Source: Candidatus Kapaibacterium sp. (GTDB taxonomy: Bacteria > Bacteroidota > Ignavibacteria > Kapaibacteriales > UBA2268). From it: a stretch of DNA of 64,000 nt. The position numbers were made by a program, and so were the translations under genes. The notes beneath the pieces are model-generated. The model did not search any database. It was not told the DNA's origin and worked only from the letters and a program-made list of their open reading frames with translations. Location of the stretch: assembly GCA_963664875.1 (NCBI GenBank), contig OY761611.1, positions 1,984,001-2,048,000 on the forward strand, written 5' to 3'. Shown here in pieces: positions 9,577 to 29,250 of this stretch. Position 1 is the stretch's first letter, and each line of letters starts with the position of its first letter.

Positions 9577-9600
9577 CAAACTCCAAAAATCAGATTTTTA

Positions 9601-10194: not shown

Positions 10195-10421
10195 GTTATA
10201 TTTTATTTCTATTAATTTGACAATTCAAATCTACGAAAAAAATCGCTTTGAGATATTTCTTTTACATCCAATGAAGTTGCTTCTTCTCAGTATTATCGTC
10301 ATTCTAATCAGCCATTGTTTCATCTCTGCCATACAAACAAAAAAGGAAGGCAACTATTACCTCCCTCTCTAATTCTTTATTAGCACCTGAATAAAATCAC
10401 CAGATTCACTCAATAGATATT

Positions 10422-11495: not shown

Positions 11496-11507
11496 TACTG
11501 TTCCTAA

Positions 11508-12290: not shown

Positions 12291-13306
12291 AATAGACGCT
12301 CTTTTATGTTATAATTCTGTGGTTTAAACGAATTCTTTATTATCAATTCCCCTAATAGTCCCATAGAGATAAACTGCACACCAACTATTATAAACGCTAT
12401 ACCCATTAGAAAAAGAGGGCGTTCGCTTAAGTATGTCATACCGAGTGCCCACTCAACCGCAAGATAGGAATCTATGCTCAAACCTAAAATTACAAACATA
12501 GTCCCTAAAAGACCAAAGAAATGGAGAGGTCTTTTCATATATCTGGTAGTAAACATTACCGTGAGTAAGTCAAGAAAACCATACAAAAATCGTGATAAGC
12601 CAAATTTAGAAACACCGTAAGGTCTCGCATGGTGCGTTACAGGTATTTCAGTTACCTTAAATCCATCCCAGTGAGCAAGTGCCGGCAGGTATCTATGCAT
12701 TTCGCCATAAACCTGCAAACGTTTAGCAACTTCTCGTCTGTATAGTTTGAACCCGCAGTTGAAATCGTGTAAACGAATACCGCTTGTTTTTGAAGTAACA
12801 TAATTGAAAAATTTAGATGGCAGTGTCTTTGAAACAGGATCATGTCTAACTTTTTTCCAGCCCGATACCAAATCCCAGCCTTGATTGATAGTATCCACCA
12901 TTCTTTTCAGCTCTTTTGGATCATCTTGAAGATCTGCATCCATTGTACCAATAAGCTTGCCGGATGCAGCCTGAAAACCAACAGATAAAGCCGCAGACTT
13001 ACCGTAATTCCTTCTAAAGCGAATACATTTAAAGTTATTATTTCTCGAATGTATCTTTTTAATTACTTCGTAAGAACTATCCGTAGAACCATCATCTATA
13101 AAAATCACTTCCCATTTATCGTCAGCGATGTCAGTTAGTTCGCCTTCTAAAGAAATAGCTAATTCCTGCAGTGATTCTTCTTCATTGAGTAAAGGAATCA
13201 CCATAGAAATATAAATATTCTTAGACCTGCCTTTATTGACATTACCTGATTTAGGATTGTGTTGTTTTCTTATGTTATATCGTATATTTTCTTTATGTTG
13301 CTCCAC
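12287..13306 (-). CDS. GT2 polyprenol-phosphate glycosyltransferase (ArnC/DPM1-like)
   Basis: VIPLLNEE, IDDGSTD, RNYGKSAAL, MDADLQDDP, two C-terminal TM helices. Confidence 0.92.
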   Translation of the reverse strand: MEQHKENIRYNIRKQHNPKSGNVNKGRSKNIYISMVIPLLNEEESLQELAISLEGELTDIADDKWEVIFIDDGSTDSSYEVIKKIHSRNNNFKCIRFRRNYGKSAALSVGFQAASGKLIGTMDADLQDDPKELKRMVDTINQGWDLVSGWKKVRHDPVSKTLPSKFFNYVTSKTSGIRLHDFNCGFKLYRREVAKRLQVYGEMHRYLPALAHWDGFKVTEIPVTHHARPYGVSKFGLSRFLYGFLDLLTVMFTTRYMKRPLHFFGLLGTMFVILGLSIDSYLAVEWALGMTYLSERPLFLMGIAFIIVGVQFISMGLLGELIIKNSFKPQNYNIKERLL

Positions 13307-13323: not shown

Positions 13324-14088
13324 CTATAATTTTATGAATTTTTTAGAAATCATCTTAGCGTTATTATCTATCAAAACAATATTATAAAATCCATTTTCCA
13401 AAGCAGAGATATCTATCATTTCTCCGTTGTACACCTGATTTAATACTTCGTTTCCTTTAGAATCGAATATTTTGTAATAACTTATATCAGAGGCAATTAT
13501 TTTAAGATAGTCCTGAGCAGGATTAGGATATAAAGCGATCGCATCATTTTGTACATCATCTATTACAGAAACAGGGTTCTTGAATACAAGTGTAATTTTA
13601 ATTCTTTTCCATGCACTGTTATTTAAGGTACATTGATCCTGAGCAAGCATATCATAATAAAATAGATTACCTGTAAGGTTATCTTTGATATACGCAGAAT
13701 CTAATCTTGCATTAGCAGGGATATTCCATTTGAGTGTAAGATCCTGAGCTCCAAATTGTGCATACATATTGTATTCTCTAACAAAAGCTTCGTTAGTATC
13801 TTCCTGTTTATAATCAATATAAGTATTCGTAGAGGCACCTTCAATATTTTTATCTGGCACTATAAAAAAGCACGCCAACTGCCCCCCTCTTCCAAGACCG
13901 GGATGTTCATATTCATTTAACGGAGGCTCTTCATCAATATAATCTGTAGCAGCAGGATCTACTCCAATAATCAGATTATTTTGTGTTTCACCGTTGCTGT
14001 TAGATGCTTCTATATTGATAGTATATTGTGCAAAAGAAATAGTCTGGGAAAAAACTACTAAAAATAATAATGTAAAAAGCTTATTCAT
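13324..14088 (-). CDS. T9SS type A sorting domain-containing protein (254 aa)
   Basis: Signal peptide; C-terminal LYPNPAQD...IFDSKG...GFY...KKFIKL. Confidence 0.85.
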   Translation of the reverse strand: MNKLFTLLFLVVFSQTISFAQYTINIEASNSNGETQNNLIIGVDPAATDYIDEEPPLNEYEHPGLGRGGQLACFFIVPDKNIEGASTNTYIDYKQEDTNEAFVREYNMYAQFGAQDLTLKWNIPANARLDSAYIKDNLTGNLFYYDMLAQDQCTLNNSAWKRIKITLVFKNPVSVIDDVQNDAIALYPNPAQDYLKIIASDISYYKIFDSKGNEVLNQVYNGEMIDISALENGFYNIVLIDNNAKMISKKFIKL

Positions 14089-14143
14089 GTTTATAGACCG
14101 ATTTATTGAAATAATGTTACTTACAAAAATAGATAAATTGTAT

Positions 14144-14182
14144 AAAAAAAGGCAACATTTCTGAAAAATGTTGCCTCTTTTT
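14144..14182 (-). terminator. Terminator after the 1017-aa T9SS gene
   Basis: aggcaacattt...aaatgttgcct stem with A/T tails. Confidence 0.7.
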
Positions 14183-14194
14183 ATTTGTTAGATC

Positions 14195-17100
14195 TTACTT
14201 AACAACAACAACTTTCAATACAGAATTGAAACCGTTTGCAGTAAGTTTGCAGATATAGCTACCTGAAGTCAATGCAGAAGCATTGAATTCGATAGTGTTA
14301 ATACCTGCATTAGCAGTCTGATTGTTTACTAAAGTCATTACTTCATTACCTAATTCATCGAATAATGCGATAGTTACATTTTCTTGAGCAGGCATGTTGT
14401 AAGAAATAGTAGCCATAGAAGTTACAGGGTTAGGACCTACTGTAAATTCAAATGTATTAACATCAGCTTCTACTTTAATAACTTTTACAGCGTCAGCAGC
14501 TGTTTCAGTAATTTCGATGTTTCCGTTTTCGCCTTTATTGATAAAGCCTAAAACGTCGTTAGTAGCAGCGTCAACAAATTGATAATCTGCATCAGCATAA
14601 GACATAGAAATTGAAACAGGATAAGTTACACCTTGCAAATTGATAACGCTTTCGTTTTTGTTAGATACATAAGTACCTTCTTCGAAACGTACGTCAAACA
14701 ATTCAACCATAGGCATAGGAGGCATTTGGAAAGTAGCAGTGCTAACATTGTTAGAAGCTAAGTACAATGAAGTATTGTGCTGAGCATTATCAACGATGTT
14801 TAACTGAGTGCTAGATGCCAAAACTGCTTCGTTATTGTTATAAGTAGCTTTACCAGTATAATTACCACCTTTAAGGTTCAAGAAACCGTTTTTGTCAGTT
14901 TTGATCCAGTAACCTCTGCCAGGTTCCATCATGTTTACAGCTACGTAACCATTTTCTAATGTGTATTTGTAAACATTGTGTTTCAAAGTAAATTCAGAAG
15001 TTGGTACTTCGCCATTGAATTCATCAAATTTGATATTAGAGATAGAAGTGTTCATTGTAGGACAGCCGATAGCGTTCCATCCACCTTTATCATCAGTATC
15101 GCCAGGATAAACTCTTACTTCGTAACCTTTGTCTCTAGAAATTTCATTAACAAACGCACCCGCAAATTTTGTATCTACAAGGTTGTTGTATTTTACAAAG
15201 TAACCATAACCAGGTTTAACGATGTCAGCTGGTTCCCACATATTGTAAGCCCAGTGCATTGGTTTAGTTACAGCATTTGGATATACGTTTTTGTATTCGT
15301 TGTTGATTGGGCTAACAGGTACAGATACCAAGTTCCAACCTTTAACGATAACAGGAGTACCATCAGCATTTACATAGTCAATAACTGAAGGAAGAGTATA
15401 TTCAATTAAGAACTCATTGATTTCAGGATCATTGATGTAGTATGTGCCTTTAGCAACTCTCATGTTAGTAGCTTCTTGTGGTACACCGTGCAATACTGAA
15501 CGGATGAATAACTGAGCACCAACCGGGAAGTCAGCAGCGTCCCAAGAAACAACTACAGGGTAGTTTTGTACGCCGTCAGCGTTAAATTTAACATTGTAGA
15601 TAATAGAGTTTACAGTGTCTTTAGAAGATCTGATATCTCTTGAAGCATACAAAGGAGCTTCCAAGTTTGGATTGATACATTCGAAACCGTAAGGGATCAA
15701 TGTTTCTAAAACAGGATCAACAGGGTAGAAACGAGCACCAAAACCAGACAATGGGTAATTGAAAGCTCTTTCGCCGAATAACAAGTCAACATTGTCAGTA
15801 GCTCTTGGAGCAGTACCGAATACTAATGAAGTCATGTCACCTGCAGAACCTCTTGAGTTACGTACATTTAATCTGATACCTGTGCCATTAGCAGCCAAAG
15901 TTGGTTCGTAAGGGCTACGGAAATAGATGAAAGTAACTTTAACTCTTACTGGAGAGATTTCAGCATTTTCTGATCTGATAGTTACATAACCGGTATAGAT
16001 ACCTTCTGATTCTTCAGCAGCACCTTTTACTTTGTTTTGATCGCAAACGATGTTGAAATATACTTTTTTATCAACAGGACCACTGATGTTCATAGGATCA
16101 GCCTGACCCATGATACCATTATCGATAAAGATACCATCTCTGAAAGTTTTAGAATCACCTTTTTTAGCTGATTCAACTTCTAACCATTCTTGGTCTGTTT
16201 CGATTCTGATATCTCTTAAACGAGTACCTGTAACTATATTTTGTAATTCTAAAACTAATTCACCTTTTGCATCTGATTCATCAGAAGCAGTAATTGGTTT
16301 AGTGATTACATAGAAAGCACCATTTTGTTCACCTTTGATTGGATCATCTTTTTCGTTGAAACCAATTTTAGGCAATTTATCCATAACACGGATATAAATA
16401 CTACCTTCTACTGTAGGCTCTGTCAACCAAAGCGGAGTCAAGCTGTTATTGATACCAGCCAAACCTGTTTTTTCAGTTGGATCCGGATAGTAGTTGATAA
16501 TTTGAGGATCTACAGCTCTGAATTCTTTGAAAGGAGCTTCTTTTCTAATGTTTAAACCATTGTAATTGATTTCCTGTCTGCCAATGTAGATAGGAGCAAT
16601 TTTTGTCAGCGGGTTAGTAGCATTAGGAATAACTCTAAAACGGATAAACATCAAAGGACGGAACTCAGGAGTTCTTGGGTCTTCGTTTACCGGTAATGAG
16701 TCAAAAGTATGTCCAACGATAGTAATTTTGTGACCATGTTTTTTGTTTTCAATACTTGCATTTGGCATGATGTCTTCCAAATAAGATTTATCAGGAACAT
16801 CATTAAAGTCAATTGAAAAACCATCTGCAGTACCGATTACTGGTTTACCTTCTTCAGTAGCATAATCAGCCAATTCAGGGATTGATGCAACTGTTTCGTA
16901 ACCTACGGCTCTAACCATAGTAGAGTCATAAAAGATATGGAATTTAAAATCTTTTATTGGTTCAGGATTTACCAAGTGGTGTCTATCTGCGAAAGGATGC
17001 CACTGATTGCTGATAAATATAGGCATCAAGAATTCTCTTGGCCCATTATCAGAAGGAGCAACCCAGATACGTCCATCAGGATATAATTCTGTATTATACG

Positions 17101-17248
17101 ACCCATCCGCACCGGTCAAAGAAAGAACCGGAATGGAAGGATTGTCAGCTTGAGCTTTTTCAAATGTTGCAAATGAAAAGCCCATGACTAGCATCAAGCC
17201 AAGAATCAACTTACTAGTCAACCCCTTTGCTTTAAAAGCTATTGTCAT
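14195..17248 (-). CDS. Large T9SS-secreted protein with N-terminal cohesin-like domain and BACON/Ig-like region
   Basis: GGAGGT RBS places start at ATG 17248; signal peptide; cohesin-like pattern (MPIFISN...FKFHIFYD...LMFIRFRV); TDQEWLEV BACON-like motif; CTD GPNPVT...LFDELG...GSYICKL...KVVVVK. Confidence 0.8.
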   Translation of the reverse strand: MTIAFKAKGLTSKLILGLMLVMGFSFATFEKAQADNPSIPVLSLTGADGSYNTELYPDGRIWVAPSDNGPREFLMPIFISNQWHPFADRHHLVNPEPIKDFKFHIFYDSTMVRAVGYETVASIPELADYATEEGKPVIGTADGFSIDFNDVPDKSYLEDIMPNASIENKKHGHKITIVGHTFDSLPVNEDPRTPEFRPLMFIRFRVIPNATNPLTKIAPIYIGRQEINYNGLNIRKEAPFKEFRAVDPQIINYYPDPTEKTGLAGINNSLTPLWLTEPTVEGSIYIRVMDKLPKIGFNEKDDPIKGEQNGAFYVITKPITASDESDAKGELVLELQNIVTGTRLRDIRIETDQEWLEVESAKKGDSKTFRDGIFIDNGIMGQADPMNISGPVDKKVYFNIVCDQNKVKGAAEESEGIYTGYVTIRSENAEISPVRVKVTFIYFRSPYEPTLAANGTGIRLNVRNSRGSAGDMTSLVFGTAPRATDNVDLLFGERAFNYPLSGFGARFYPVDPVLETLIPYGFECINPNLEAPLYASRDIRSSKDTVNSIIYNVKFNADGVQNYPVVVSWDAADFPVGAQLFIRSVLHGVPQEATNMRVAKGTYYINDPEINEFLIEYTLPSVIDYVNADGTPVIVKGWNLVSVPVSPINNEYKNVYPNAVTKPMHWAYNMWEPADIVKPGYGYFVKYNNLVDTKFAGAFVNEISRDKGYEVRVYPGDTDDKGGWNAIGCPTMNTSISNIKFDEFNGEVPTSEFTLKHNVYKYTLENGYVAVNMMEPGRGYWIKTDKNGFLNLKGGNYTGKATYNNNEAVLASSTQLNIVDNAQHNTSLYLASNNVSTATFQMPPMPMVELFDVRFEEGTYVSNKNESVINLQGVTYPVSISMSYADADYQFVDAATNDVLGFINKGENGNIEITETAADAVKVIKVEADVNTFEFTVGPNPVTSMATISYNMPAQENVTIALFDELGNEVMTLVNNQTANAGINTIEFNASALTSGSYICKLTANGFNSVLKVVVVK

Positions 17249-17264
17249 TCTAACCTCCATTGAG

Positions 17265-18416
17265 TTATTTAATATTTAAATATCTTACTTTTGCAATTTT
17301 ATTTTGGGCTTTTATGACGACTAAATACAATCCAGCACTTTTATCGTCAAAGCTTATTATCTGTCTATCTTGATATTTTGTACAGTTTCCATTCAAATCA
17401 TATATCTCTATAATGTTATCTTGGTCTTTTACGATTATGCTGTTGTCGGCAATTTCGTAAACTGACTGTACATCTACATCTGTGACACTTGTAGTTCTGT
17501 TTGCAAAGACACACGTATCTTTTTCAAGAGTTTTGGCACAGTTACAGTCGTTTAAGTCTGCAATCTCTACCTCAATAGACTCATCATAGTTTTCGTTTAT
17601 CACTCTGTCTATTTCAAAATCTAAAAAGTACTCTTGAGTGTTTTCTTTTATATTTAGAACAATATCGTAACTGCTATCTGACTCTATTACATTTGCTATT
17701 TCGATGTCGCTGTTTTTTGCAGCAAAGTTTGAAAATAAGAATTTATCTGATTTTTGAAGTTTCAAAAGAAAATTGCTTACTTTTGCCTCTTCCGGAATAT
17801 CTAAAATCATAGTAGAATTTAGTTTTCCTGTTTCATCAAATTCTTTTTCTTCAGCATCAAAGCTAACTTTTGCATATCTGTTTTCACCTGATTTAACTTC
17901 TGATTCAATATAGAATGTTTTATTGGCAAAAGCAGGTATTTTACATTCGGATGTAAATGATAATTCTTCTACAACAAGGCTCGCAGAATCCGGACAATCT
18001 CCGATATAAGTAAACTGCAAAGCTATTAACGGCAAGTCTCCATAACTAGGAACATTTATATGTCCACTTAAGATGCCTGCATTTAACAATATATGATTAT
18101 CATCTATCACTTTTATACTAACTTTATCAAACCTCTCAGAAAGAGTATTTAAAGTGGCATAAGTATTACCAAAGTATAGTTTGGTATTATCATATTCCAT
18201 GTATAAAGTAATACCGAACAGTGAGTCAGATGGCTCTATAGTGCCTAAATCTAAATGTATAAGAACGTCTCTTTTGCTGTTTTGAAATACTATTCCGCAA
18301 GCATCAGCTTTTGACTTAGGAATTATTTCTAAGTTATAATCTTTTGCATTGCTCGGGATACTGCTCCAAAAGAGCAGTATTCCGATGCAAAATATATAAT
18401 AGCTGAGTTTACGCAT
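17265..18416 (-). CDS. T9SS-secreted protein with one or two cohesin-like domains
   Basis: Signal peptide; VLIHLD...LFGITLYMEYDNTKL...PLIALQF cohesin-like pattern; degenerate CTD IYDLNG...GLYLV...KVRYLNIK. Confidence 0.7.
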   Translation of the reverse strand: MRKLSYYIFCIGILLFWSSIPSNAKDYNLEIIPKSKADACGIVFQNSKRDVLIHLDLGTIEPSDSLFGITLYMEYDNTKLYFGNTYATLNTLSERFDKVSIKVIDDNHILLNAGILSGHINVPSYGDLPLIALQFTYIGDCPDSASLVVEELSFTSECKIPAFANKTFYIESEVKSGENRYAKVSFDAEEKEFDETGKLNSTMILDIPEEAKVSNFLLKLQKSDKFLFSNFAAKNSDIEIANVIESDSSYDIVLNIKENTQEYFLDFEIDRVINENYDESIEVEIADLNDCNCAKTLEKDTCVFANRTTSVTDVDVQSVYEIADNSIIVKDQDNIIEIYDLNGNCTKYQDRQIISFDDKSAGLYLVVIKAQNKIAKVRYLNIK

Positions 18417-18417
18417 A

Positions 18418-20307
18418 TTATTTGCTTAGAACTACTTTTTCTGTTACAGAAGTATCATTACCTGATAGTCTGATAATATATACACCATTTGCAACAGCAT
18501 TACCGTTGTCATCTTTACCGTCCCAAACGTATTCGCTACCGCTAATTGCAAATGATTTTACTTTGTTACCTAACATATCGTAGATAGCCAAGTTCATATC
18601 ATTTGTCAAATTAGCATTTAAGCTGAATATAGCATTTGAAGAGAATGGATTTTTAGACAACATTTTAATGCCTAATGTATAGTTTGAAGTTTCAACTTGA
18701 CTTACAGTTGAAGTCAAATCTGCTACTTCATTATCGTTCAATCTGATACCGCTTAATTTTACTTCTTTTTCATTTAAGCTAATTTCGATATCGCAAACTT
18801 TAGAATCTTTAGCTAAGTCTTGATTAGCACCAGCAATAACTACTCTGTTTTGAGTAAAGCTTACCATCAAATCTTTGTTAGCAAGTTTCACATCAGCTAC
18901 GTTAGCATTGATGTCAAATTTAGTACTAAAAGCACCTTTTACATCGCCATTAACATATACAGGAATAGTATAGTTACCGTTTTCAAGTTTAGTCATTGTA
19001 CCAAGAACTAAGTTAGTAGCTTGAACATCAACATCTACAGCTGATTTGCCTTTATAATCAATCGGATGTTTCCAAGGCAACTGAGAAATCTGACCACCTA
19101 AGTATTCTAATACATAAGCAGCATCATGTTCGTTACATTGGAATCTAATTTGTTTGATAGAAGCAATTGCTTCAGGTAAATCATCAGAGTATTTGTCAGA
19201 TTTTGCTTCAATTCTAACTTTGTTACCATCAACGTCGAAGTAGAAACGACCATCGTGAGTAACGTCGCCATGGTATGCTTGTCTTCTTCTTGCATCATCC
19301 AATGGTTGGTTAGTAGCTACAGATTTCATAATGATGCGAGCATCATTTATAGAAACGAATCTGTTTTGTGGCTGACCTTCGTGAATATTACCTACAGCTT
19401 TAGAGAAATCAACATCGCCATCGCCCCACCATTCTTCGATTTTGTTAGTAGCTTTAGCAATAAATTTGATTCTTGCATCAGATCTTTGACCTGAAGGCTG
19501 CCAGATATTAGTCAAGTCAGTTGTAGTTTTTTGAAGGTTGATGTCTTGATCGTACAACAAACCGTTCATATAGTCATCAGCTTCACCTTTGATACCAACT
19601 GAAGCGTCTTTGTAAACAACTACAGTATTTGGTGAGTTAGGGTTACCACCGATACCGCCGTAGCAAAATTCGATATCGCCTTGAGCAGAGTACAAAGAAG
19701 TTGATTTATAGATAATCAACTGGAAGTTTGCAACGCTTGAAGGTTGATTTTTATCGTTGATATTCAAATTTTTCCACTGAACGATAAATTTATCAGTTTC
19801 TTTCAAATAAGAAATTTCAGAAGCTAAGTAAGAATTTTTTTCATCCAAAACATTTCTGTAGTAGTGGTCACCCCAGAAAGGAGCCAATACGTTTACAGGA
19901 TATGAAGAAGATTCGATAAACAAAGCTTCTGCATCTACAGCAGGAACCATTGGAGGATCGATTCTAACGATCTGATTGTATTGGTTCTTTTCATATTTGC
20001 TGAATGTTACAAAGCCATTGACGTTGATAAATATTGAGTTATAGACTTCTCCATTATATTCGAAATCAAAACCCAAATCAACCTGATAGTAACCGTCGTC
20101 GTAGTCAACTTCATTTGCCGGAGGCAAAATGAACTCTTCGCGAGGTATAACGGTTTTCTCGTTATCATTTAGCTCTGCATATGGAACTCCGGTTATCAAT
20201 GTAGCAGGCTGAAACTCTGTCCATATTTGAGCTTGGAGATTTGGTGATACAGCTGTTAAACTTGCGATAGCGGCAAGTCCAACTGCAACCTTTTTAAATC
20301 TCTTCAT
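18418..20307 (-). CDS. T9SS-secreted protein: nidogen-like domain, dockerin-like module, cohesin-like domain, FlgD-Ig/CTD
   Basis: GGAG RBS places start at ATG 20307; DLGFDFEYNG...INVNGFVTF...LAPFWGD; GDVD...INDARIIMK / GDVTHDG...DAAYVLEYLGG; WDGKDDNG...GVYIIRL CTD. Confidence 0.8.
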   Translation of the reverse strand: MKRFKKVAVGLAAIASLTAVSPNLQAQIWTEFQPATLITGVPYAELNDNEKTVIPREEFILPPANEVDYDDGYYQVDLGFDFEYNGEVYNSIFINVNGFVTFSKYEKNQYNQIVRIDPPMVPAVDAEALFIESSSYPVNVLAPFWGDHYYRNVLDEKNSYLASEISYLKETDKFIVQWKNLNINDKNQPSSVANFQLIIYKSTSLYSAQGDIEFCYGGIGGNPNSPNTVVVYKDASVGIKGEADDYMNGLLYDQDINLQKTTTDLTNIWQPSGQRSDARIKFIAKATNKIEEWWGDGDVDFSKAVGNIHEGQPQNRFVSINDARIIMKSVATNQPLDDARRRQAYHGDVTHDGRFYFDVDGNKVRIEAKSDKYSDDLPEAIASIKQIRFQCNEHDAAYVLEYLGGQISQLPWKHPIDYKGKSAVDVDVQATNLVLGTMTKLENGNYTIPVYVNGDVKGAFSTKFDINANVADVKLANKDLMVSFTQNRVVIAGANQDLAKDSKVCDIEISLNEKEVKLSGIRLNDNEVADLTSTVSQVETSNYTLGIKMLSKNPFSSNAIFSLNANLTNDMNLAIYDMLGNKVKSFAISGSEYVWDGKDDNGNAVANGVYIIRLSGNDTSVTEKVVLSK

Positions 20308-20355
20308 TGTTTTCTCCAATTTATTTATTAATCTCTTTTTCTATTTTTTAAGTAG

Positions 20356-20383
20356 GCAGGTCTTCAGTCTAAAGAAGACCTGC
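20356..20383 (-). promoter_or_regulatory. Intra-cluster stem-loop (terminator or mRNA stabiliser) after the giant gene
   Basis: gcaggtcttc...gaagacctgc perfect 10-bp stem; no immediate U-tract on the - strand. Confidence 0.55.
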
Positions 20384-20396
20384 TATATTCTAAGTG

Positions 20397-23300
20397 TTAT
20401 TTTACTAAAACAACCGGCATAGAAGAAGAAACGTTACCTGCTTTCATTCTGATAGTGTAAGTTCCACTTACGATGCCTGAATTAGCTACTTTCCAGTCGA
20501 TTGTATGAGTACCGGCTTGGTAATTACCACTGTTAATTACTTCAACTACGTTACCTAATACATCGATCAATTCGAATGATACTGATTCACTTCTTGTCAA
20601 AGTAAATTCAATGTTAGCACTTGTTGTAACAGGGTTTGGACTTACTGAGTTCAAGCTTGTTACGAACATTTCGTTATCATCGATGCTCATAGCAGGATCA
20701 TAAACGATTACAAATTCTGTAAGAGCTAAGTCATTGATTGTAATAGTACATTCAGAACCGTTTTTCTCGAATTGAACTGTAGATACATGGTTGCCTTCAC
20801 CATCTTTCATGTTGAAAGAGTAGTAGTTACCATCTGTAGTCAATCTGTCTTTGATAAAGAACTGACCATCAGTTGGGATTTGGTCTGTATTCCATGCGAT
20901 AGTTACAGGAACTAATGGACCTGTAGCACCGTTTTCACCACCTGGTTGGAACTGACCATTGTATCTAAACAAACCATCTACGTTTGAAGGATAGATATTT
21001 CTAGCAACACCGTTAGTTGCAGGGATATCCCATCTTGCATCAAATGCGTCTAATGGCGGAATTGGAGCCAATTCAAATTCGCAATGTGTTTCATCGATAA
21101 TACCTACTTCTTTACCATCATCGCCATAACCTGTAGTTGCGTTTGCAGGAGCAGTACCGAAAGAAAGTACTTTTGCAGCGCCGATGCTATTTGTAATAGT
21201 CAAATCAGCAACGAAATCTGTAGGATCAGCAAGTCTGATAATGTAAGGGATAACCAATTCTTCACCATATTTATCAGTGATAACAATCAACAATCTTGCA
21301 GAAGATTTATCAATTGGATCTCTGTCTAGATCTAAGTTAGAAGCTGTGATTTCGATATCTTGTTCTTCGTTGATAGGACCAACTAAAGAAGAAGGGCTAA
21401 ATGTAAATTTGCTAGTAATTTTTTGACCTTTAGTCCAATCTGCCTGAGCATAATAGATATCGATAGTCAATTCTTCTTCGTGTCCATCTATGTTACGTAA
21501 CAAGTCTCTGTCGCTGATAGTGATTTCATCTCTGAAGTTACCACCAAGATCAGCACAAATTACTTCTTGTTGAGCTACATAGTTTGGAGCGTGGTTAAGT
21601 GAGTCAACTTGTAACTGCAATACTTTAATTGTTGGAAGACCTTCTTCGTCTCTTACTACTACAAATACAGGGTCTGTTTTTGGAGCATCAAGTACGCCAG
21701 GTGTACCGAACAACAAGCCTGATTTAGGATTGATTTTCAACCAAGCAGGAGTTGCATAAGTCAAGTCAGCAACATTGAAGCCTGCAGCTGTCAATTCATC
21801 TTTAACATTCCAAGCACCTGCTTCAGGGAAACAAGGATCTTTTGGTATGTCTGCAGCATTGATGTCATAAACTAATTCGAATTCGTGTGTTTGATCGAAG
21901 TTAGCATCTTTTACATGAATCATTCTATTAGAGTCAAGTAGGTCGATGTTGTAATCTTCGTCTTCTTTAGCATTGTCTAATGCTTCAGTGATGATTTCAG
22001 GAGCGATATTGATAAGTACTTTGTACTGTTGCAATGCCATAGCACCATGACCATCATTAACAACGATATTTACGATTGTGTCTAAGTTTAATGCACCATT
22101 AACTGATTTAGAATCAGCTTTAGCTGTAAGCAATTCGATAGCTTCTGCTCTGTCGATGCGGATGTTCAATTGACCTTTGCTAGTGAATAGCAAGCCATTA
22201 ACATCAGGAATAGTAGCATCGTCGAAAGTCATCATATATTCCGGAGCCAACCATTTAGGAGCGATTCTATTGATCATAGAAATGCCACTTGGGTCGTAAC
22301 CGTCACTATCAAAATCAACTGCTAATGTATCAAGGTCAATTACGTTACCGTCGTTATCATAAGCTACGTGTTGGAAGCCGTAAGCTGTTTTACCATAAGG
22401 GAACGTCCAAGGAGTTCTACCTGCAGCTACGTCATGAGCAAGAGCCCATTGGTCTTCGTTTTCATCGTTAGTGTTAACGTCGATTTGGAAACGCAATTTA
22501 TCTGTTAAGTTAGCTTTCAACTGACCGTCATCAGTAATATCGCAAGCTGACAATGAAGGAGTGTATTCAACCCAAGTTTTAGTTGTACCTTGAGCATCTG
22601 TTCTGATTTCAACTACTTCTTTAGCTGCATCTACTGCTGCCTGATCTCTCATATCTACGAAATCTGCAAATTGAGGAACAGAGTCAACAACGATAAGTTT
22701 GAAAGTGTAAGAACGTTTGTAGTTAGTACCAAAGTTGATAGTATCTTGTTGCAAGAATCTTGCATTATCAGTATCGTATTTTTCTGCATGGAAATATTCA
22801 GGATAAGTTTCGATATACTTATCTATTTCGTTTAAGTCAAAGTTAGGATCATGTGCTAACAATGAATCAAGTACTCTGTAGTGAGGAGGGAAGTTAGAAA
22901 CTGTAACAGTTACATCTTCACCGCCAGGTACTACAAATGGGTTCAACGGACGACCACGGAAGATCATGTAACCATTTGCAGAATCAGCAACAGAAGGAAC
23001 ATTGATATTTGCAATGTCAGTAGTAGTTCTGTAAACTTTATCAAACATCAACCAACGAGAAACTGCTGTGTTAGGATCAACATTCCAATCGTAGAACAAT
23101 TCAGAATATTGGTCACCAGCGATTTCAGATCTTGGATCGATAAATTTGTTTAAGTCTTTTGCAGTAATTTTTACGATTACGTTATTGTTGTTGTTACCTA
23201 ATTCATAAAGATGATCTTCAAGAACAAATTTAGTGTTCAAGAATTCTTCAACTTGAATTGTGTCTGGTCTGTTAGGAATATCAGAACCTGCAAGGTATTC

Positions 23301-26300
23301 AGGAACTTCAGTTTGCAATTTAACAACATCACCTGTAAACACTGGAGGATTTGTAGATTCAGAGATACCGAATTTCAAACCATCTTCCATAGCTTTTACA
23401 ACACCTTCTCTCCACAATACTGTACGAGAAACGATTCTGATTGTATCGCCAACGTTTACCGGAAGTGCTTTATATCTTTCACCAGCGAAGTACGCTTGGT
23501 TACCATCGTTAGAAGCAGGCATATCAGGTCTGTTGCTATAGATTTTAGCAAAGTCACCTAAGTTATAGTTATTGATTGCTTCTAATACAGAGTATTTACG
23601 ACCTTGAAGAGCAGCGCCATCTTCATTATAAGGATTGCGAGCTAATTTTTCAAGTAAAGGCTGACCAGAACCTAAGTTCATCAAACCTTCTTCGTTACGA
23701 CGGAACAAGAATTTGTTATTTCTGTTTGTAGAGTCAGGAACCAATTCAACTCTTGCACGGAATACTTCTTTGTTAGCACCGGCTTCAGCAACCTGTTTCA
23801 TGTTAACGCGGATGTAGTCAGTAGTAGTTTCATTGATTACAAAGAATACTGTTTCGTTTACAACGTTTGTGTCGTGGTTAGATCTTTCAATCATACCATC
23901 GTAATCAACCATAGATTCTAAGAACATTGGGTATCCGATTGGATGAGAATCTTCTTTGAAGTCTGTGATTAATTTAGAAACGATTGCATCATCTTCCATA
24001 TAAGGATCGCGAGTCATACGACGAACATATTTACCGTCGAATACTTCACCTGCAGCAGCATATCTATCTACAACAGGAGCGATACCAACTGCGAAGTCTT
24101 CAATTGGAGACATTCTGCGGTTAGAATAGTCAGCAGTTTTGATGTCAGTACCTTTGTCATATACGTCATAAACGCGACCTGACATAAGTAATGTTTCTTT
24201 GATTGAATTAGTACCAGGTAAAGTAACGTCATTAACGTCATTTACTAATGGTATTGGAGTATAGTTATATTTGTTGTAAGATTCAAATGGACCTTGTTCT
24301 CTTGGATCAGCCAAAGTAGTTGGATCAGCAGCATACATAGTTTTCATATGAGTTTCGCCGTCACCTTCGATGTAGAATGTTTCGAAACGTGCGTTAGCGA
24401 TACCGCCACCAGCATTTGGCAATTCAAAGATAATGTTTGCTTGAGTTTCACCCCAGTAGTTACCGCGCAATGTGTCAGTACCACCGGAACCGATACCTGT
24501 AATACCAGCCAATAAGCCTTTAGTATTAGGAGCATCCGGTAATCTTACAAAGAAGCGAGCGCTGTTATCATAAACAGAGTTAGCTGCTTCAGAGTAAATG
24601 TAAGAAGGTAGTGGACCTTGAACTTCACCATAAATAGTAGTAGAAGCCAAATCGCTTGAAGCTAAGTTTTTAGGGTTAGAGTTAGGATTGAAAGGACCAT
24701 CGATTGTGTTTTGTTCCCAACCGTATTGGTTTCTTGCATCTACATCATTACCTGCAATAAGAGATCTATTGAAGATAAGTTTCAAATCGTAGTTGTCAGA
24801 GTAAACAGCTGAACCAGTAAATGATTTGTTACCAACCATTCTTACGCGGTTAAAGTTTACAGAGTCAATTCTACCAATTCTGTTTTGAGTTACTGAGTCA
24901 AGGATGTACAATGCACCGCCAAGACCAACGCCATTTTCAGGAAGCATCACTTCTTGGTGATAACGAGTAACATCAGTGAAGCCTTCGTCAGCTGGTTTAA
25001 CAGAAGTCCATTCAGTAGCGCCGTTTGTAAGTACAAGACCGGCATCACCTACTACAAAACCTTTGTTAGGAGCTGAGAAGAAGATATCAGCAAAAGAATA
25101 TTTAGCATATTTGTTTTCAACTTTTTCTTCAGTCCAAGTCAAACCACCGTCAACTGATTTGAAGAAAGTACCAAACTGACCAACCATATAGCCTGTAGTC
25201 TGAGCAACAAAGTAAACTTTATTGATAGTGTGAGTAGCAGGGCTATTAGGATTGATTACCCAGTTATCGCCTTTGTTAGCAGTAGTCATCATGATACCGC
25301 CTTCACCTACAGCGTAACCGTCGTTAGGATTTTTGAAGAATACAGATTTCAAGTTTTGAGTAACGCCGGCAACTGTTCTTAAGATCCAGTCTTGGCCACC
25401 GTTAGTAGTTTTCAACATAGTACCACGATCACCAACAATGAAACCATTGTTAAGACCATCGTTGAAATCTACAGCATTCAAATGAGCAGTAACAGGTTGA
25501 GTTGAAGTCCAAGTCTGACCTGCATCAGTTGTTTTCAAGATATAACCATTATCGCAAGCAGCAACAGCTACGTTAGTACCAATAAATTTAACATCATTGA
25601 TTTTAGCTGAAACAGGAGTAGTCATTTTTACCCAAGTTTTACCTGCGTTTGTAGTTTTCAATACAGTACCGCGGTCACCAACTACATAACCTGTTTGGTA
25701 GTCAGTAAAGTGAACGTCAGTAAGTCTGTAGTTAGTACCTGAAGTCAAGTATTCCCAGTTTGCACCACCGTTAGTAAATTTAACGATAAGACCACCCATA
25801 CCAACGCCATAACCAATGTTGTTATCCAACCAGTTAGTAGCGATAATATTGTTAGTAGTTACTTGAGTACCTTGATTAACTTGAGTAGCACCTGAGCCAG
25901 TTTGAGAAGCAAGAATATTATCATCAACGATAATTTCGTTGTTGTAGAATCTTGTCAACATTCTAACATCAGGAGGGAAGTTTTCAGAGTCATAAGTAAA
26001 TACATCATTGTATGAGTTGTAAGAAACAGGCATACCGTACATGTCATACTGAACATCATCAACGTCAGTGATAAAGAAACGTTTAGAAGAAGTTTCAGGA
26101 TTAACCATACAGATTGCACCACCGTTACCGTTATAAACAGTATTGTGAGCAAACTCAACACCTTTAACTAAAGTAAGGTCAGCGTTAAGAGCATAAATAG
26201 CACCGCCACCTCTGATTTCAGGTTTGTTAGCATCAACAGTAATGTCTTTACCAACAGTGTTGCCTAAGAAAGAAGCTCTTACAAATGAGCAAGCTCTTTC

Positions 26301-28397
26301 GTGAGCAGGAAGAACAGGATATGCATTAGGTATTCTCAAATCGATAGCACCACCAGCATAACCGGCTTTGTTATTTTCAAAGATTACAGGGTAATTACCG
26401 CCATAACCGATAATTTCTTTAGAAGCTACACCACCGGCGCCATTTACAGACATTGCTCTTTTAGAGAATACTGCACCACCGAAAGTTTGAGCTACGTTAT
26501 CTTTAAATTTGATATTGAAACCATAATCTCTTGTAAGCAATGAAGCATCAGAACCACCGATTACAGGTGATTTCATGTGGTCAACATTACCATCAACAAA
26601 AATCGCACCGCCAGCACCAGCTTCGTTACCTTGGAATAAAGTAGCGTTATTGATTGCATCGCGAGCAGGACCACCAACTACTTGCAAACGACCGATTGTA
26701 TTTGCATGGAACACAGCACCACCCATAGAGAAGTAACCGCTGTTAGAACCTGCAACATCGTCTTGCAAGAATTTAGTGTAAGTTTTGTTGAATTTGAATT
26801 CACCGGCTAAGATCATAGAAGTGTAATCACCAACGTACAAAGCACCACCACGTGCACCGTAAGTAGAGCCTGAGCTTTGGAAGTTACGAGCTTCGTTACC
26901 TTCAGCAACAAATTCGTCAGCATCAGCAAAAGTAATCAAATTACCATGAGCATCTTTTATAGTATTGTTTATACCAAAACCAACTTCAATCTGGCGAGGA
27001 TTAGCACCGTAGAAACCGGCAACATAAATCGCACCACCGAAAGCGTGGTTACCATATTTTTGTGGGTAATTAGCAGGGTTGTCAGTATCGTCAACAACTA
27101 CGTCAACGCCACCGATTTTTTTAACAACAACATTAGCTAATTGAGCTTTGTTACCTGAGAAAGTAAGATTACGCATACGACCTAAGTAAAGAGCAACGCG
27201 AGCGTCGTCCCATGCTTGACGATCGAAATCTGTAGCAAATGGTTCCTGAACATCACTATCTATATTATCAATAGCAGGAACAGGATTATTTCTGATGATT
27301 TCAGAAATTTCGCCTTGAGCATTTACAATCTGAGGGTTTTTGTCAGAAGCATAAGTAGGCAATGAAGTAACATTTTTAGGGTAACCTTCTGGAGCTTGCA
27401 AAATCTGCAATGCACCACCGCGGTTACGAGACATGTTATTTACAAATTCGCAATTCAACAACCAAGTTCTTGAAGACAAAGTAGTGATAACACCACCGCC
27501 ACCATTAGTTAGAGTGCGAATTTTTTCATTCATTTCAGCAGTTTTAGCGCCGAATTCATTACCATTATAAATAGGGTCTCTATCTACAGTAGTGTCTTTT
27601 TTGAAACCTTCGAAACGTACGTTTCTAAAGAATGCAGCTCTTGCACCTGGAAGAACCACGATGTGACCCCATTCTCTTGAAGCGTTATTTACAGGTTGAC
27701 CGATGAAGTTGATTTGTTCAGCTTCAACAGCAACATCTGCACCACTAACTCTTTTCCAAGGTTGAGTGTTTAGAAGGATGTCGATTTTAGGATCAAACTG
27801 CAAACGAGCGTTTTTGAACATTAACGCTTGTTCGAAAGGAACGATGAATTTGTGAGGACCAACCACGTCATTTGCTCTGTGGTTTGCATCAATCATCTGG
27901 AAGTCTTCGATTTTTCTGTTTAGAGTATCGACAACAACATTGAAAACAGTGTTGTATTTAGATGTATGAACAGACAAATCGCGAGTAGTATTTACATCAA
28001 CTGTTTTAGTGTCAGATGTATATCCTAAACCACGAGTGAAATAAGCCATATCAGCATAGCCGGTATAGCCGGAACCGGGAGCGATAGGGTTAACACCATC
28101 CGGTGCTTTAATGTAATTAGCAACAGCTTCGCCATCGGCGATGATTCTACCACCAACTGAGTCAATTAGTCTTGAGTTAGGGTAGAAGTAAACTGTTGTA
28201 CCCGGCTCGATAATCAAAGACCCGCCAACTACGTAATTCTTATCGATTACGTAAACGGTATCTTTTTGGAACAACCTTACATCCCCGGGTGCTATTCGAC
28301 CGGAAACGTAAGCTTGCGGTTTTTGAGCCATAGCCTGTCCAAACGAGAGGACACAGAGTAATACAGCTAAAAAGCTCAAACGAATCAATCGTTGCAT
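20397..28397 (-). CDS. Giant (2666 aa) T9SS-secreted surface protein: Pmp-like beta-helix, YCF48/BNR propeller, cadherin/He_PIG Ig repeats, CTD
   Basis: GGAGGT RBS; signal peptide; repeated GGA(I/L/V) and FxxN; KTTNAGKTW/KTTDAGQTW BNR repeats; PAWLKINPKSGLLFGTP; SPNPVT...IDVLG...GTYTIRM CTD. Confidence 0.88.
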   Translation of the reverse strand: MQRLIRLSFLAVLLCVLSFGQAMAQKPQAYVSGRIAPGDVRLFQKDTVYVIDKNYVVGGSLIIEPGTTVYFYPNSRLIDSVGGRIIADGEAVANYIKAPDGVNPIAPGSGYTGYADMAYFTRGLGYTSDTKTVDVNTTRDLSVHTSKYNTVFNVVVDTLNRKIEDFQMIDANHRANDVVGPHKFIVPFEQALMFKNARLQFDPKIDILLNTQPWKRVSGADVAVEAEQINFIGQPVNNASREWGHIVVLPGARAAFFRNVRFEGFKKDTTVDRDPIYNGNEFGAKTAEMNEKIRTLTNGGGGVITTLSSRTWLLNCEFVNNMSRNRGGALQILQAPEGYPKNVTSLPTYASDKNPQIVNAQGEISEIIRNNPVPAIDNIDSDVQEPFATDFDRQAWDDARVALYLGRMRNLTFSGNKAQLANVVVKKIGGVDVVVDDTDNPANYPQKYGNHAFGGAIYVAGFYGANPRQIEVGFGINNTIKDAHGNLITFADADEFVAEGNEARNFQSSGSTYGARGGALYVGDYTSMILAGEFKFNKTYTKFLQDDVAGSNSGYFSMGGAVFHANTIGRLQVVGGPARDAINNATLFQGNEAGAGGAIFVDGNVDHMKSPVIGGSDASLLTRDYGFNIKFKDNVAQTFGGAVFSKRAMSVNGAGGVASKEIIGYGGNYPVIFENNKAGYAGGAIDLRIPNAYPVLPAHERACSFVRASFLGNTVGKDITVDANKPEIRGGGAIYALNADLTLVKGVEFAHNTVYNGNGGAICMVNPETSSKRFFITDVDDVQYDMYGMPVSYNSYNDVFTYDSENFPPDVRMLTRFYNNEIIVDDNILASQTGSGATQVNQGTQVTTNNIIATNWLDNNIGYGVGMGGLIVKFTNGGANWEYLTSGTNYRLTDVHFTDYQTGYVVGDRGTVLKTTNAGKTWVKMTTPVSAKINDVKFIGTNVAVAACDNGYILKTTDAGQTWTSTQPVTAHLNAVDFNDGLNNGFIVGDRGTMLKTTNGGQDWILRTVAGVTQNLKSVFFKNPNDGYAVGEGGIMMTTANKGDNWVINPNSPATHTINKVYFVAQTTGYMVGQFGTFFKSVDGGLTWTEEKVENKYAKYSFADIFFSAPNKGFVVGDAGLVLTNGATEWTSVKPADEGFTDVTRYHQEVMLPENGVGLGGALYILDSVTQNRIGRIDSVNFNRVRMVGNKSFTGSAVYSDNYDLKLIFNRSLIAGNDVDARNQYGWEQNTIDGPFNPNSNPKNLASSDLASTTIYGEVQGPLPSYIYSEAANSVYDNSARFFVRLPDAPNTKGLLAGITGIGSGGTDTLRGNYWGETQANIIFELPNAGGGIANARFETFYIEGDGETHMKTMYAADPTTLADPREQGPFESYNKYNYTPIPLVNDVNDVTLPGTNSIKETLLMSGRVYDVYDKGTDIKTADYSNRRMSPIEDFAVGIAPVVDRYAAAGEVFDGKYVRRMTRDPYMEDDAIVSKLITDFKEDSHPIGYPMFLESMVDYDGMIERSNHDTNVVNETVFFVINETTTDYIRVNMKQVAEAGANKEVFRARVELVPDSTNRNNKFLFRRNEEGLMNLGSGQPLLEKLARNPYNEDGAALQGRKYSVLEAINNYNLGDFAKIYSNRPDMPASNDGNQAYFAGERYKALPVNVGDTIRIVSRTVLWREGVVKAMEDGLKFGISESTNPPVFTGDVVKLQTEVPEYLAGSDIPNRPDTIQVEEFLNTKFVLEDHLYELGNNNNNVIVKITAKDLNKFIDPRSEIAGDQYSELFYDWNVDPNTAVSRWLMFDKVYRTTTDIANINVPSVADSANGYMIFRGRPLNPFVVPGGEDVTVTVSNFPPHYRVLDSLLAHDPNFDLNEIDKYIETYPEYFHAEKYDTDNARFLQQDTINFGTNYKRSYTFKLIVVDSVPQFADFVDMRDQAAVDAAKEVVEIRTDAQGTTKTWVEYTPSLSACDITDDGQLKANLTDKLRFQIDVNTNDENEDQWALAHDVAAGRTPWTFPYGKTAYGFQHVAYDNDGNVIDLDTLAVDFDSDGYDPSGISMINRIAPKWLAPEYMMTFDDATIPDVNGLLFTSKGQLNIRIDRAEAIELLTAKADSKSVNGALNLDTIVNIVVNDGHGAMALQQYKVLINIAPEIITEALDNAKEDEDYNIDLLDSNRMIHVKDANFDQTHEFELVYDINAADIPKDPCFPEAGAWNVKDELTAAGFNVADLTYATPAWLKINPKSGLLFGTPGVLDAPKTDPVFVVVRDEEGLPTIKVLQLQVDSLNHAPNYVAQQEVICADLGGNFRDEITISDRDLLRNIDGHEEELTIDIYYAQADWTKGQKITSKFTFSPSSLVGPINEEQDIEITASNLDLDRDPIDKSSARLLIVITDKYGEELVIPYIIRLADPTDFVADLTITNSIGAAKVLSFGTAPANATTGYGDDGKEVGIIDETHCEFELAPIPPLDAFDARWDIPATNGVARNIYPSNVDGLFRYNGQFQPGGENGATGPLVPVTIAWNTDQIPTDGQFFIKDRLTTDGNYYSFNMKDGEGNHVSTVQFEKNGSECTITINDLALTEFVIVYDPAMSIDDNEMFVTSLNSVSPNPVTTSANIEFTLTRSESVSFELIDVLGNVVEVINSGNYQAGTHTIDWKVANSGIVSGTYTIRMKAGNVSSSMPVVLVK

Positions 28398-28492: not shown

Positions 28493-29215
28493 TTACTCAA
28501 TTTTCATGCCAAGACGTGCCAAGCCTGATTTAGCAAGCGTTGTAAACTCGTTCTGATATGTATCGGCAACTATCTGATTATAAAGCTCTTCAGCTTTTTT
28601 TGTATCTTTTGCCACTTCAAATAATTTACCTGCATAATATTTATATCTGAATTCTGTATTTTTTTGCACTGCTAATTGGCTTGCCTGAAGGTATAAATCC
28701 GCTGCTTCAAGAGCTTTTCCTTCTTTTTCCCTGCATGCTCCCATACCGGCTAAAGCACCCATTTTCAACACGTTAGACTCACTTTCGCCAGCCATATCAA
28801 AAAATTTTGCAGCTTCTGCCAATTTGTTTTGTACCAAATAAGCGTTTGCTGCATACAATGCTGCCTGCATACCCTGATCAGTACCTGAGTACTGCTCAGC
28901 CACTTCCGGAAGACTCATGATAGGCATTCCGTCGATTTTTATAGACTTATCGCCATTGAGTGCTTTGTCGTATTCGCCGTTAAAATAATAAGCCTGAATA
29001 CGGGATAGAGCCACAGATGCTTCGTTAATCTCTTCTTCTTTCTGGGAGTTAACGAAATATCCGACTAATAAAACTACTAATAGACCGGCAGCTCCTGCCA
29101 AGATATAACGACCATATTTCTTTACTTTTTCCATTATGTCTTCATGGTCGTCTATCAAAATCTCGTTCTCAACCTGAATCATAGGTTCTTGATTGAGCTC
29201 TTCTTGGTTTTTCAT
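28493..29215 (-). CDS. Membrane-anchored TPR protein (YfgM-like ancillary SecYEG subunit)
   Basis: One N-terminal TM followed by TPR helices; YSGTDQG..A.LYA pattern. Confidence 0.7.
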   Translation of the reverse strand: MKNQEELNQEPMIQVENEILIDDHEDIMEKVKKYGRYILAGAAGLLVVLLVGYFVNSQKEEEINEASVALSRIQAYYFNGEYDKALNGDKSIKIDGMPIMSLPEVAEQYSGTDQGMQAALYAANAYLVQNKLAEAAKFFDMAGESESNVLKMGALAGMGACREKEGKALEAADLYLQASQLAVQKNTEFRYKYYAGKLFEVAKDTKKAEELYNQIVADTYQNEFTTLAKSGLARLGMKIE

Positions 29216-29250
29216 TATCAACCTTTCTTCTATATTTTTAAAATACTTAG

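Follow-up and report, generated by a model that had tools for sequence, protein, structure and literature searches.

The 64,000-nucleotide stretch of contig OY761611.1 from Candidatus Kapaibacterium sp., here called the window, carries a run of five genes on the minus strand between positions 13324 and 28397. Their products were designated P1 to P5 in the order of transcription. All five carry features of type IX secretion system (T9SS) cargo, including a C-terminal domain (CTD) of the sorting type. P2 contains a dockerin-like module, and P3 and P4 contain cohesin-like modules, i.e., the two halves of an interaction otherwise associated with cellulosomes. A first-pass annotation of the window had described five co-oriented genes of these lengths and quoted peptide strings from them; all of the genes are present and every string was located at its position. 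The start of P2 was placed at the ATG at 20307, which has GGAG 8 nt upstream and gives a protein of the same length as the closest homologues. Intergenic gaps measure 77-89 nt between P1 and P2, 1 nt between P2 and P3, 4 nt between P3 and P4, and 106 nt between P4 and P5, and the base composition runs through the region without a break. Recurrence of this gene order in relatives shows that the open reading frames (ORFs) do not stand together by chance. Coordinates of genes, domains and accompanying features are collected in Table 1.

Table 1. Genes, domains and accompanying features of the P1-P5 cluster, in positions of the window (HMM, hidden Markov model; pLDDT, predicted local distance difference test).
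Feature	Position	Strand	Remarks
Upstream neighbour, TPR_21 (YfgM-like)	28493..29221	-	242 aa; single-pass membrane protein; Pfam E 1e-4, 22.6 bits, cut-off 25.5
P1	20397..28397	-	2666 aa; giant T9SS cargo protein
P1 Ycf48-like seven-bladed Asp-box beta-propeller, residues 847-1124	25026..25859	-	phmmer against PDB Ycf48 chains, E 1.6e-18
P1 copy of shared domain, residues ~2378-2586	20640..21266	-	located by HMM
P1 T9SS type A CTD	20418..20645	-	TIGR04183, 29.4 bits
P2	18418..20307	-	629 aa from ATG; 633 aa from TTG (18418-20319)
P2 nidogen-like (NIDO) beta-rich domain, residues 30-291	19447..20232	-	Pfam NIDO E 0.003, 18 bits, cut-off 25; pLDDT ~90
P2 dockerin-like module, residues 292-425	19045..19446	-	orthologue Dockerin_1 matches; reciprocal profile search
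P2 beta-sandwich, residues 428-545	18685..19038	-	pLDDT ~90; cohesin reading unproven
P2 T9SS type A CTD	18430..18654	-	TIGR04183, 33.4 bits
P3	17265..18416	-	383 aa; cohesin-like module, variable middle with four conserved Cys, CTD
P3 cohesin-like module, residues 24-175	17892..18347	-	orthologue Pfam matches, Atlas, predicted complex
P3 T9SS-type CTD	17289..17429	-	TIGR04183, 19.9 bits, below cut-off in this copy
P4	14195..17260	-	1021 aa (1017 aa from internal ATG); cohesin-like N-terminus, uncharacterised domains, shared domain, CTD
P4 cohesin-type jelly-roll, residues 38-300	16361..17149	-	AlphaFold2 model and Foldseek
P4 copy of shared domain, residues 471-640	15341..15850	-	hhalign, HMM
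P4 T9SS type A CTD	14204..14437	-	TIGR04183, 37.8 bits
Terminator-like hairpin	14140..14176	-	18 nt past P4 stop; 11-bp stem, then TTTTTTTATA (seven T's, coding strand); read by eye
P5	13324..14088	-	254 aa; shared domain and T9SS CTD
P5 copy of shared domain, residues 20-185	13534-14031	-	hhalign
P5 T9SS CTD	13330-13533	-	TIGR04183, 32.0 bits

The first-pass annotation had assigned a signal peptide and a T9SS CTD to each of the five proteins. Inspection of every N-terminus by eye showed a basic n-region along with a hydrophobic stretch and a site resembling AxA. The CTDs of P1, P2, P4 and P5 score above the curated cut-off of TIGR04183, the T9SS type A sorting domain (23 bits); that of P3 stays below it, yet Por_Secre_tail was matched in 34 of 50 P3 orthologues at E<=1 (best 2e-8). 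Precomputed Pfam annotation of the orthologues contained sorting-domain (CTD-type) families only. Judged from the known behaviour of type A CTDs, all five proteins would be exported and anchored at the cell surface. The annotation had also recognised no hydrolase domain, and in agreement with this neither glycoside hydrolase (GH), polysaccharide lyase (PL), carbohydrate esterase (CE) or peptidase families nor other catalytic families were matched in the five proteins or in 18 P1 orthologues (Pfam, NCBIfam). No carbohydrate-binding module (CBM) family appeared among the matches of the five in the Pfam scans, including those at E<=10 on excised segments. The lack of enzymes, together with the kinds of domain present, leads us to infer an adhesive or structural role.

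The cluster is operon-like and conserved class-wide in Kapabacteria. At least 120 full-length homologue clusters of P2 were found at ~40% identity, those with names being T9SS or hypothetical proteins of Candidatus Kapabacteria or Kapaibacterium. With one genome per species scanned, the best 80 of 187 stretches encoding a P2 relative were taken as the set of loci. By tblastn at no less than 50% query coverage, P2 was accompanied by P1 in 71 of the 80 loci, by P3 in 59, by P4 in 71 and by P5 in 33, without exception co-oriented and in unchanged succession, many of the misses being due to short contigs or fast-evolving genes. Family HMMs were counted only over loci whose contig extends far enough. 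By this measure P2 is preceded by the C-terminal domain of P1 in 73 of 73 loci and followed by the P3 module in 72 of 73 (L066 lacks it). The P4 module occurs in 71 of 71, and behind P4 a P5-like ORF was seen in 61 of 64, the exceptions being L007, L008 and L073. The recurrent order is up1-P1-P2-P3-P4-P5, with up1 upstream of P1. Gene order is thus kept in relatives, a point on which the first-pass annotation had made its proposal depend, and because of this synteny across loci the cluster can be regarded as a stable feature of the lineage.

The dockerin-like module is the most conserved part of P2, with 50% mean column identity and invariant residues that include WGDGD-D-S, V-ND, LD, HGDV-H-GR, DA and LPW. 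It consists, in this order, of loop 1 (WGDGDVDFSK), a 14-aa insert, helix 1 (NDARIIMKSVA), a linker, loop 2 (HGDVTHDGR), a beta-hairpin insert of 35-50 aa, and the last helix (HDAAYVLEYL) followed by LPW; each putative calcium loop (GDGDVD, GDVTHDG) is parted from its helix by an insertion. Helices were modelled at residues 324-336, 346-351 and 397-407 with low to moderate confidence (block means 38-85). For the dockerin-like reading that the first-pass annotation had given this protein, evidence comes from two directions. Firstly, Dockerin_1 is the commonest Pfam family among orthologues of the segment, matched in 9 of 57 (the next family in 4), and the matches fall either on helix 1 together with loop 2 (model positions 7-43 of 57) or on the last helix (9-23). 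Secondly, a profile of the P2 module, searched against 1.84 billion representative proteins, retrieved 98 at E<=1e-3, of which 91 were at <=1e-10. Among the matches listed, nearly all have the module at residues ~280-460 of a protein of 600-870 aa, as in P2. The six weakest of the 98 include three proteins longer than 500 aa (P0213-P0215, E 3e-4 to 3.9e-4), which contain 7-9 Dockerin_1 stretches each (Pfam E 1e-56 to 1e-59) and whose residue alignments span both halves of the P2 module; the remaining three are short (240-247 aa). This reciprocal link to true dockerins is significant but weak, since repeat-rich targets add up score, and it is the strongest evidence for the identity of the module. 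A profile search of the PDB with the module gave nothing or noise. Because the module was also found in P0199, a protein of 1772 aa that carries it at 1425-1579 together with a choice-of-anchor I domain, Big_5 and a T9SS CTD, it is not confined to the architecture of P2. We read it as one highly conserved, atypical and remote dockerin, both of whose putative loop/helix repeats are split by insertions.

The domain preceding the dockerin-like module resembles NIDO. Its three top Atlas clusters score 0.95, with NIDO in 14%, 12% and 69% of their members, and it has an invariant H152 and a near-invariant D151. The NIDO family has no known activity. The domain is likely the 'payload' of the dockerin-bearing protein. 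A similar segment was noticed elsewhere in the window, where a short N-terminal part (residues 44-85) of a 631-aa fn3 protein (41143-43038, plus strand) matches the profile of the P2 NIDO-like domain (E 6.8e-6); this protein has an FG-GAP repeat protein on either side (39309-40952 and 43232-45226).

Cohesin-like patterns had been claimed for three places, i.e., the N-terminus of P4, P3, and the part of P2 that follows the dockerin. The claim is borne out best in P4. Residues 38-300, modelled with AlphaFold2 on an alignment of syntenic orthologues, gave a pLDDT of 94.5 and a predicted TM-score (pTM) of 0.92. With Foldseek against the PDB, 31 of the 34 matches listed were cohesins or cohesin-dockerin complexes and the other three were YcnI (E 1e-4 to 1.6e-3, TMt mostly 0.42-0.52). 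The structures matched come from Clostridium, Acetivibrio, Ruminococcus and Pseudobacteroides, and include the non-cellulosomal cohesin 2xdh of Archaeoglobus. Because cohesins dominate these matches, the fold is cohesin-type and not a generic Ig or FN3 fold, which the annotation had named as the outcome that would speak against it. At the level of sequence, weak Pfam Cohesin matches occur in 10 of 54 orthologues of the P4 N-terminus (best E 0.0089), Cohesin being the sole family to match more than one member, and the single match of the profile in the PDB at E<=10 was the cohesin 4dh2_A (E 0.074). The most conserved residues would lie on the strands that we take as 3, 5, 6 and 8.

For the N-terminal module of P3, Cohesin was matched weakly in 12 of 50 orthologues (best E 2.4e-4), each other family appearing in one member only, and an Atlas feature search returned a cluster with Cohesin in 14% of members (score 0.93). 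The profile had no match in the PDB, and a word-indexed search with it in longer proteins found 13 orthologues only and nothing out of the family. Cysteines 40, 141, 291 and 293 of P3 are invariant or nearly so in the 50 orthologues, though the protein is fast-evolving, which suggests disulfides or metal binding. The third cohesin is no more than a candidate: residues 428-545 of P2 had no Pfam or PDB sequence match, and the fold gave a weak hint only, as Foldseek with the whole of P2 listed at the top the cohesin plus FN3 structure 2w1n (E 1.3e-7), and single cohesins (TMt 0.51-0.56) among many Ig-like structures, the aligned region being unreported. In profile-profile comparison among all candidate modules no pair exceeded 20% probability, and P2 428-545 matched neither the P3 nor the P4 module. 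Between the latter two, hhalign aligned only an F-x-F-x-I-x-YD strand (E 0.009, probability 4.5%). Second copies of the cohesin- and dockerin-like modules were not found by HMMs in the window or in the 80 loci. The modules are not classed as Pfam members, because they score below the curated sequence thresholds; we consider them real but remote cohesin and dockerin types, related by fold in the case of P4 and by the reciprocal profile link in the case of the dockerin.

The remaining two proteins are connected to P4 by another domain. P1 is composed of a signal peptide, Chlamydia-PMP repeats, a propeller of the Ycf48/BNR type, an Ig-like He_PIG domain (weak), the shared domain and the CTD. PSII_BNR is present in 18 of 18 P1 orthologues. 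No other protein of the cluster is as well conserved as P1, which shows 51% mean column identity over these orthologues, with D, E, R, N and H invariant at many positions; such a level is unusual for an adhesin or surface protein. The shared domain comprises ~150 aa with the pattern FGTxxxATxGxD...FDARF...SRDIR...YPV..W, and its copies in P1, P4 and P5 were aligned by hhalign with probabilities of 98-99% (E 1e-13 to 9e-20). No Pfam match was obtained for the P4 or P5 copy, and none in the PDB by profile search for the P4 copy. It may represent an undescribed module of Kapabacteria T9SS cargo, acting as a second association module, or may be just a lineage-specific cargo domain.

The complex of P2 and P3 was predicted from residues 24-175 of P3 and 292-425 of P2, each with its own alignment, together with three controls. 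The pair scored 0.79 (0.81, 0.79 and 0.79 in separate runs), against 0.00 for the best of the controls. This mark was reached by 116 of 157 solved complexes and by 2 of 215 mismatched pairs, a calibration that is rough here, the alignments being our own. At least 98% of contacts are shared between runs, the pLDDT of the partner is at least 83, and the P3 chain within the complex has 84-89. Contacts in P2 are made by residues 304, 312, 319-320, 323-325, 327-329, 331-332 and 335 of and around helix 1 and by 400, 404 and 407-409 of the last helix. On the side of P3 they involve residues 67-70, 72, 98, 100-102, 104, 110, 112-118, 120-121, 151, 153-156 and 162. Two dockerin helices (P2 319-335 and 400-409) are thus predicted to lie on the P3 strands 67-72, 98-104, 110-121 and 151-156, which we take to be the canonical 8-3-6-5 face of a cohesin. 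The first-pass annotation had suggested such modelling of the dockerin with each cohesin candidate; it was run for the P3 pair alone, and the cohesin of P4 may suit the dockerin as well as that of P3, or better.

The explanation we favour, with about an even chance of being right, is that these are non-catalytic surface proteins exported by T9SS, in which the P2 dockerin plugs into the cohesin of P3 and possibly of P4 to form a surface complex. Five proteins, none with a detectable catalytic domain, would pass the Sec and T9SS pathways to the cell surface. After export, the P2 dockerin would most likely enter the 8-3-6-5 face of the P3 cohesin, or possibly the P4 cohesin. By docking, cargo proteins that each have an anchor of their own would be joined sideways in one complex, where the P2 NIDO-like domain is displayed next to P1 with its beta-helix and propeller, and P1, P4 and P5 are perhaps tied by the different, shared domain of ~150 aa. 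Docking of P2 on P3 is what we infer from one structure prediction. A wider version, in which this is a core, non-enzymatic surface complex of Kapabacteria built on an ancient, insertion-bearing dockerin subtype, single diverged cohesins and the second, undescribed shared domain, is tentative, and we place it somewhat short of an even chance.

Several observations weigh against docking. Both putative calcium loops of the dockerin-like module are interrupted. HMMER searches with Cohesin, Dockerin_1 and TIGR04183, which the first-pass annotation had proposed, retrieved the sorting domain in four of the five proteins, and no window protein gave a Cohesin or Dockerin match in Pfam even at E<=10 on excised segments. 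Orthologue matches to Dockerin_1 (PF00404) are below the gathering cut-off where shown, the best reaching 16.8 bits versus 22.9. The TM-scores of P4 38-300 are only ~0.42-0.52, with a root-mean-square deviation of 7-10 A, because of ~120 residues of insertions. The pass of the complex prediction indicates likeness and not binding, because cohesin-dockerin complexes have already been solved, and as the controls were unrelated proteins, not non-cognate dockerins, the score does not speak to partner specificity. The predicted interface on P3 is no more conserved than the rest of the module (column entropy 2.37 vs 2.23), and over 42 paired loci the P2-P3 contact pairs showed no excess of covariation, as their mean mutual information was equalled in 1140 of 5000 random sets; with few and related sequences, these two results count neither way. 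A mean column identity of 26% in P3 versus 50% in the dockerin-like module is odd for a fixed pair of partners. Because each protein has its own CTD, docking is unnecessary for keeping any subunit on the surface. Finally, neither a cohesin nor a dockerin module was found in P1 or P5 (18 P1 orthologues; HMMs over the window and all loci), so docking of this kind alone cannot join all five. Taken as a whole, the interpretation proposed earlier is supported in part.

The best-surviving alternative, which we consider possible but unlikely, is that the five are independent T9SS surface proteins, their modules being inherited folds that serve as spacers or bind ligands without mutual docking, and the genes being clustered for co-regulation. 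This would fit a separate signal peptide and CTD in every protein, module scores that are all below family thresholds, the lack of an interface conservation or covariation signal, and the fact that a family with solved complexes can pass complex prediction by likeness alone. It is harder to reconcile with a dockerin-like segment that is the most conserved in P2, suggesting a constrained interaction surface, with cohesin genes packed right behind the dockerin gene at gaps of 1 and 4 nt, with the joint presence of all three module types in nearly every locus, and with a complex score of 0.79 where controls gave 0.00.

An improbable alternative is that the cluster is an accessory of envelope biogenesis, concerned with attachment of cargo or of a glycan layer and tied to lipopolysaccharide (LPS) glycosyltransferases (GT) and a YfgM-like protein, and not an adhesin. 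Behind the cluster lie the genes for GT2 (53 of 80 loci), a 260-aa protein (49) and GT9 (50), TPR_21 precedes it in 68 of 80, and no locus of sufficient length lacks the cluster, which would suit a core function; P1 also combines a propeller and a CTD, as does the T9SS attachment protein PorZ. The only PorZ match in the cluster, however, is to the CTD of P2, and beyond the CTD nothing homologous to PorU, PorV, PorZ or PorQ was seen. GT2 and GT9 are far more conserved (55-89% identity) and may be housekeeping genes in a stable neighbourhood, and the hairpin after P4 argues against a single transcript into the glycosyltransferases. Equally improbable is a degradative, cellulosome-like complex whose catalytic parts are too diverged to be recognised, the candidates being P1's PMP-repeat beta-helix or propeller and the NIDO-like domain in P2: the unusual conservation and invariant polar residues of P1, H152 and D151 in the kind of subunit that bears the enzyme in cellulosomes, and the beta-helix and Asp-box propeller folds that occur in polysaccharide lyases and some glycosidases would agree with it, but no GH, PL, CE or peptidase family was found in the five proteins or the 18 P1 orthologues, the P1 propeller matches Ycf48, a non-enzymatic assembly factor, the P2 domain matches NIDO, which has no known activity, and no CBM family is among the matches. 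The idea of a hidden hydrolase was ruled against by the absence of any catalytic family in every scan.

Set beside known systems, the cluster with its predicted P2-P3 docking resembles the type I cellulosome pairs (1ohz, 4uyp, 3ul4, 6kgd) in the cohesin-type jelly-roll of the P4 N-terminus, in the two putative calcium-loop-plus-helix repeats of the P2 module, which align to true dockerins, and in the predicted mode of binding, with dockerin helices on one cohesin sheet. It differs from clostridial and ruminococcal cellulosomes in having no catalytic subunits, CBM or tandem-cohesin scaffoldin, and at most one cohesin-like module per protein. The dockerin repeats of P2 are split by inserts of 14 and 35-50 aa, the modules are below Pfam thresholds, and the host is a Gram-negative of the Bacteroidota-Chlorobiota group. 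All five proteins, unlike the dockerin subunits of cellulosomes, own a T9SS anchor, so that any docking would join proteins already anchored. Identity as a cellulosome was rejected, since there is no GH, PL, CE or CBM, no multi-cohesin scaffoldin and no paralogous modules in the window or the loci. Cohesin-type modules outside cellulose degradation are a closer parallel; those of Clostridium perfringens (2w1n, 2vo8, 2jh2) and Archaeoglobus fulgidus (2xdh) are among the structural matches in the fold searches with P2 and P4. The cohesin and dockerin proteins of these two organisms are enzymes or single orphan proteins, whereas here a conserved five-gene cluster of non-catalytic T9SS cargo is found. 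We regard the cluster as a non-catalytic, T9SS-linked variant among the non-cellulosomal cohesin-dockerin systems, the docking being predicted. In its export signals it resembles the gingipains of Porphyromonas gingivalis, from which type A anchoring of T9SS cargo is known, having a signal peptide and a TIGR04183 C-terminal domain, here recognised from sequence alone. In Cloacimonadota, one genome study predicts a cellulosome-like system for 'Ca. Stygibacter', with cohesin and dockerin proteins that bear a conserved C-terminal (T9SS-type) domain by which they attach to the surface, dockerins on GH18, GH57 and peptidases, and a 3755-aa scaffoldin with tandem cohesins and CBMs, detectable by InterProScan (PMC8542988). 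The likeness consists of CTD-bearing cohesin and dockerin proteins outside Firmicutes, known in both cases from genomes alone, and the difference is that the present cluster has no enzymes, has single modules and is invisible to standard annotation. Our literature search found no link of Kapabacteria to cohesins, nor of Kapaibacterium to type IX secretion; one paper mentions Kapabacteria and T9SS together.

Cohesin-dockerin pairs are the textbook device of cellulosome assembly, and protein engineers have widely adopted them; most of the copies that occur elsewhere await characterisation. The present five-gene cluster of T9SS cargo is fixed and enzyme-free, and in it an entire bacterial class has retained a single dockerin-like module and two that are cohesin-like. 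If the predicted docking is true, it would be a structural, non-degradative use of the pair in a Gram-negative envelope. The known interaction types would be extended by an unusual dockerin architecture in which the calcium loops are split, and there would be a way to approach what a highly conserved 2666-aa surface protein does in a poorly known lineage dominated by uncultured members. If the wider version holds as well, cohesin-dockerin docking would be a general device of envelope assembly in the Bacteroidota-Chlorobiota, beyond the organising of enzymes.

The terminator-like hairpin in the gap between P4 and P5 suggests that P5 is transcribed separately. A consensus scan for promoters and terminators listed the stem of this hairpin on the plus strand only, and found no excess over shuffled sequences (54 promoters vs 59.3; 7 terminators vs 9.8). 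Just past the P1 stop, an 8-bp hairpin, AGGTCTTC...GAAGACCT, was seen at 20350-20373 on the minus strand, without a T-run. How much downstream transcript is made relative to P1 might depend on this hairpin.

The gene directly upstream of P1 encodes the TPR_21 protein, in whose translation a hydrophobic segment is visible. By tblastn it was found upstream in 68 of 80 loci, and downstream of the cluster GT2 was found in 53, the gene of unknown function in 49 and GT9 in 50. The TPR_21 protein is possibly part of the unit, and could be a dedicated export helper for P1. In the window, the downstream genes at 8980-13306 (minus strand) encode GT2, the 260-aa protein of unknown function, a heptosyltransferase-like GT9, an EngB-type GTPase and a SIS-domain protein. 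The glycosyltransferases may reflect a link to the LPS core that anchors type A T9SS cargo, or only a stable neighbourhood.

Some 8-10 kb from the cluster, a flagellin gene (36123-37070, minus strand) and a gene for a TPR plus LuxR-type regulator (37409-39199, plus strand) were observed, and because of these the organism appears to be flagellated. Many records, those of loci L005, L007, L022 and L025 among them, are titled 'uncultured Hyphomicrobiales bacterium' and yet carry the Kapabacteria-type cluster; the titles probably do not reflect the taxonomy of those records.

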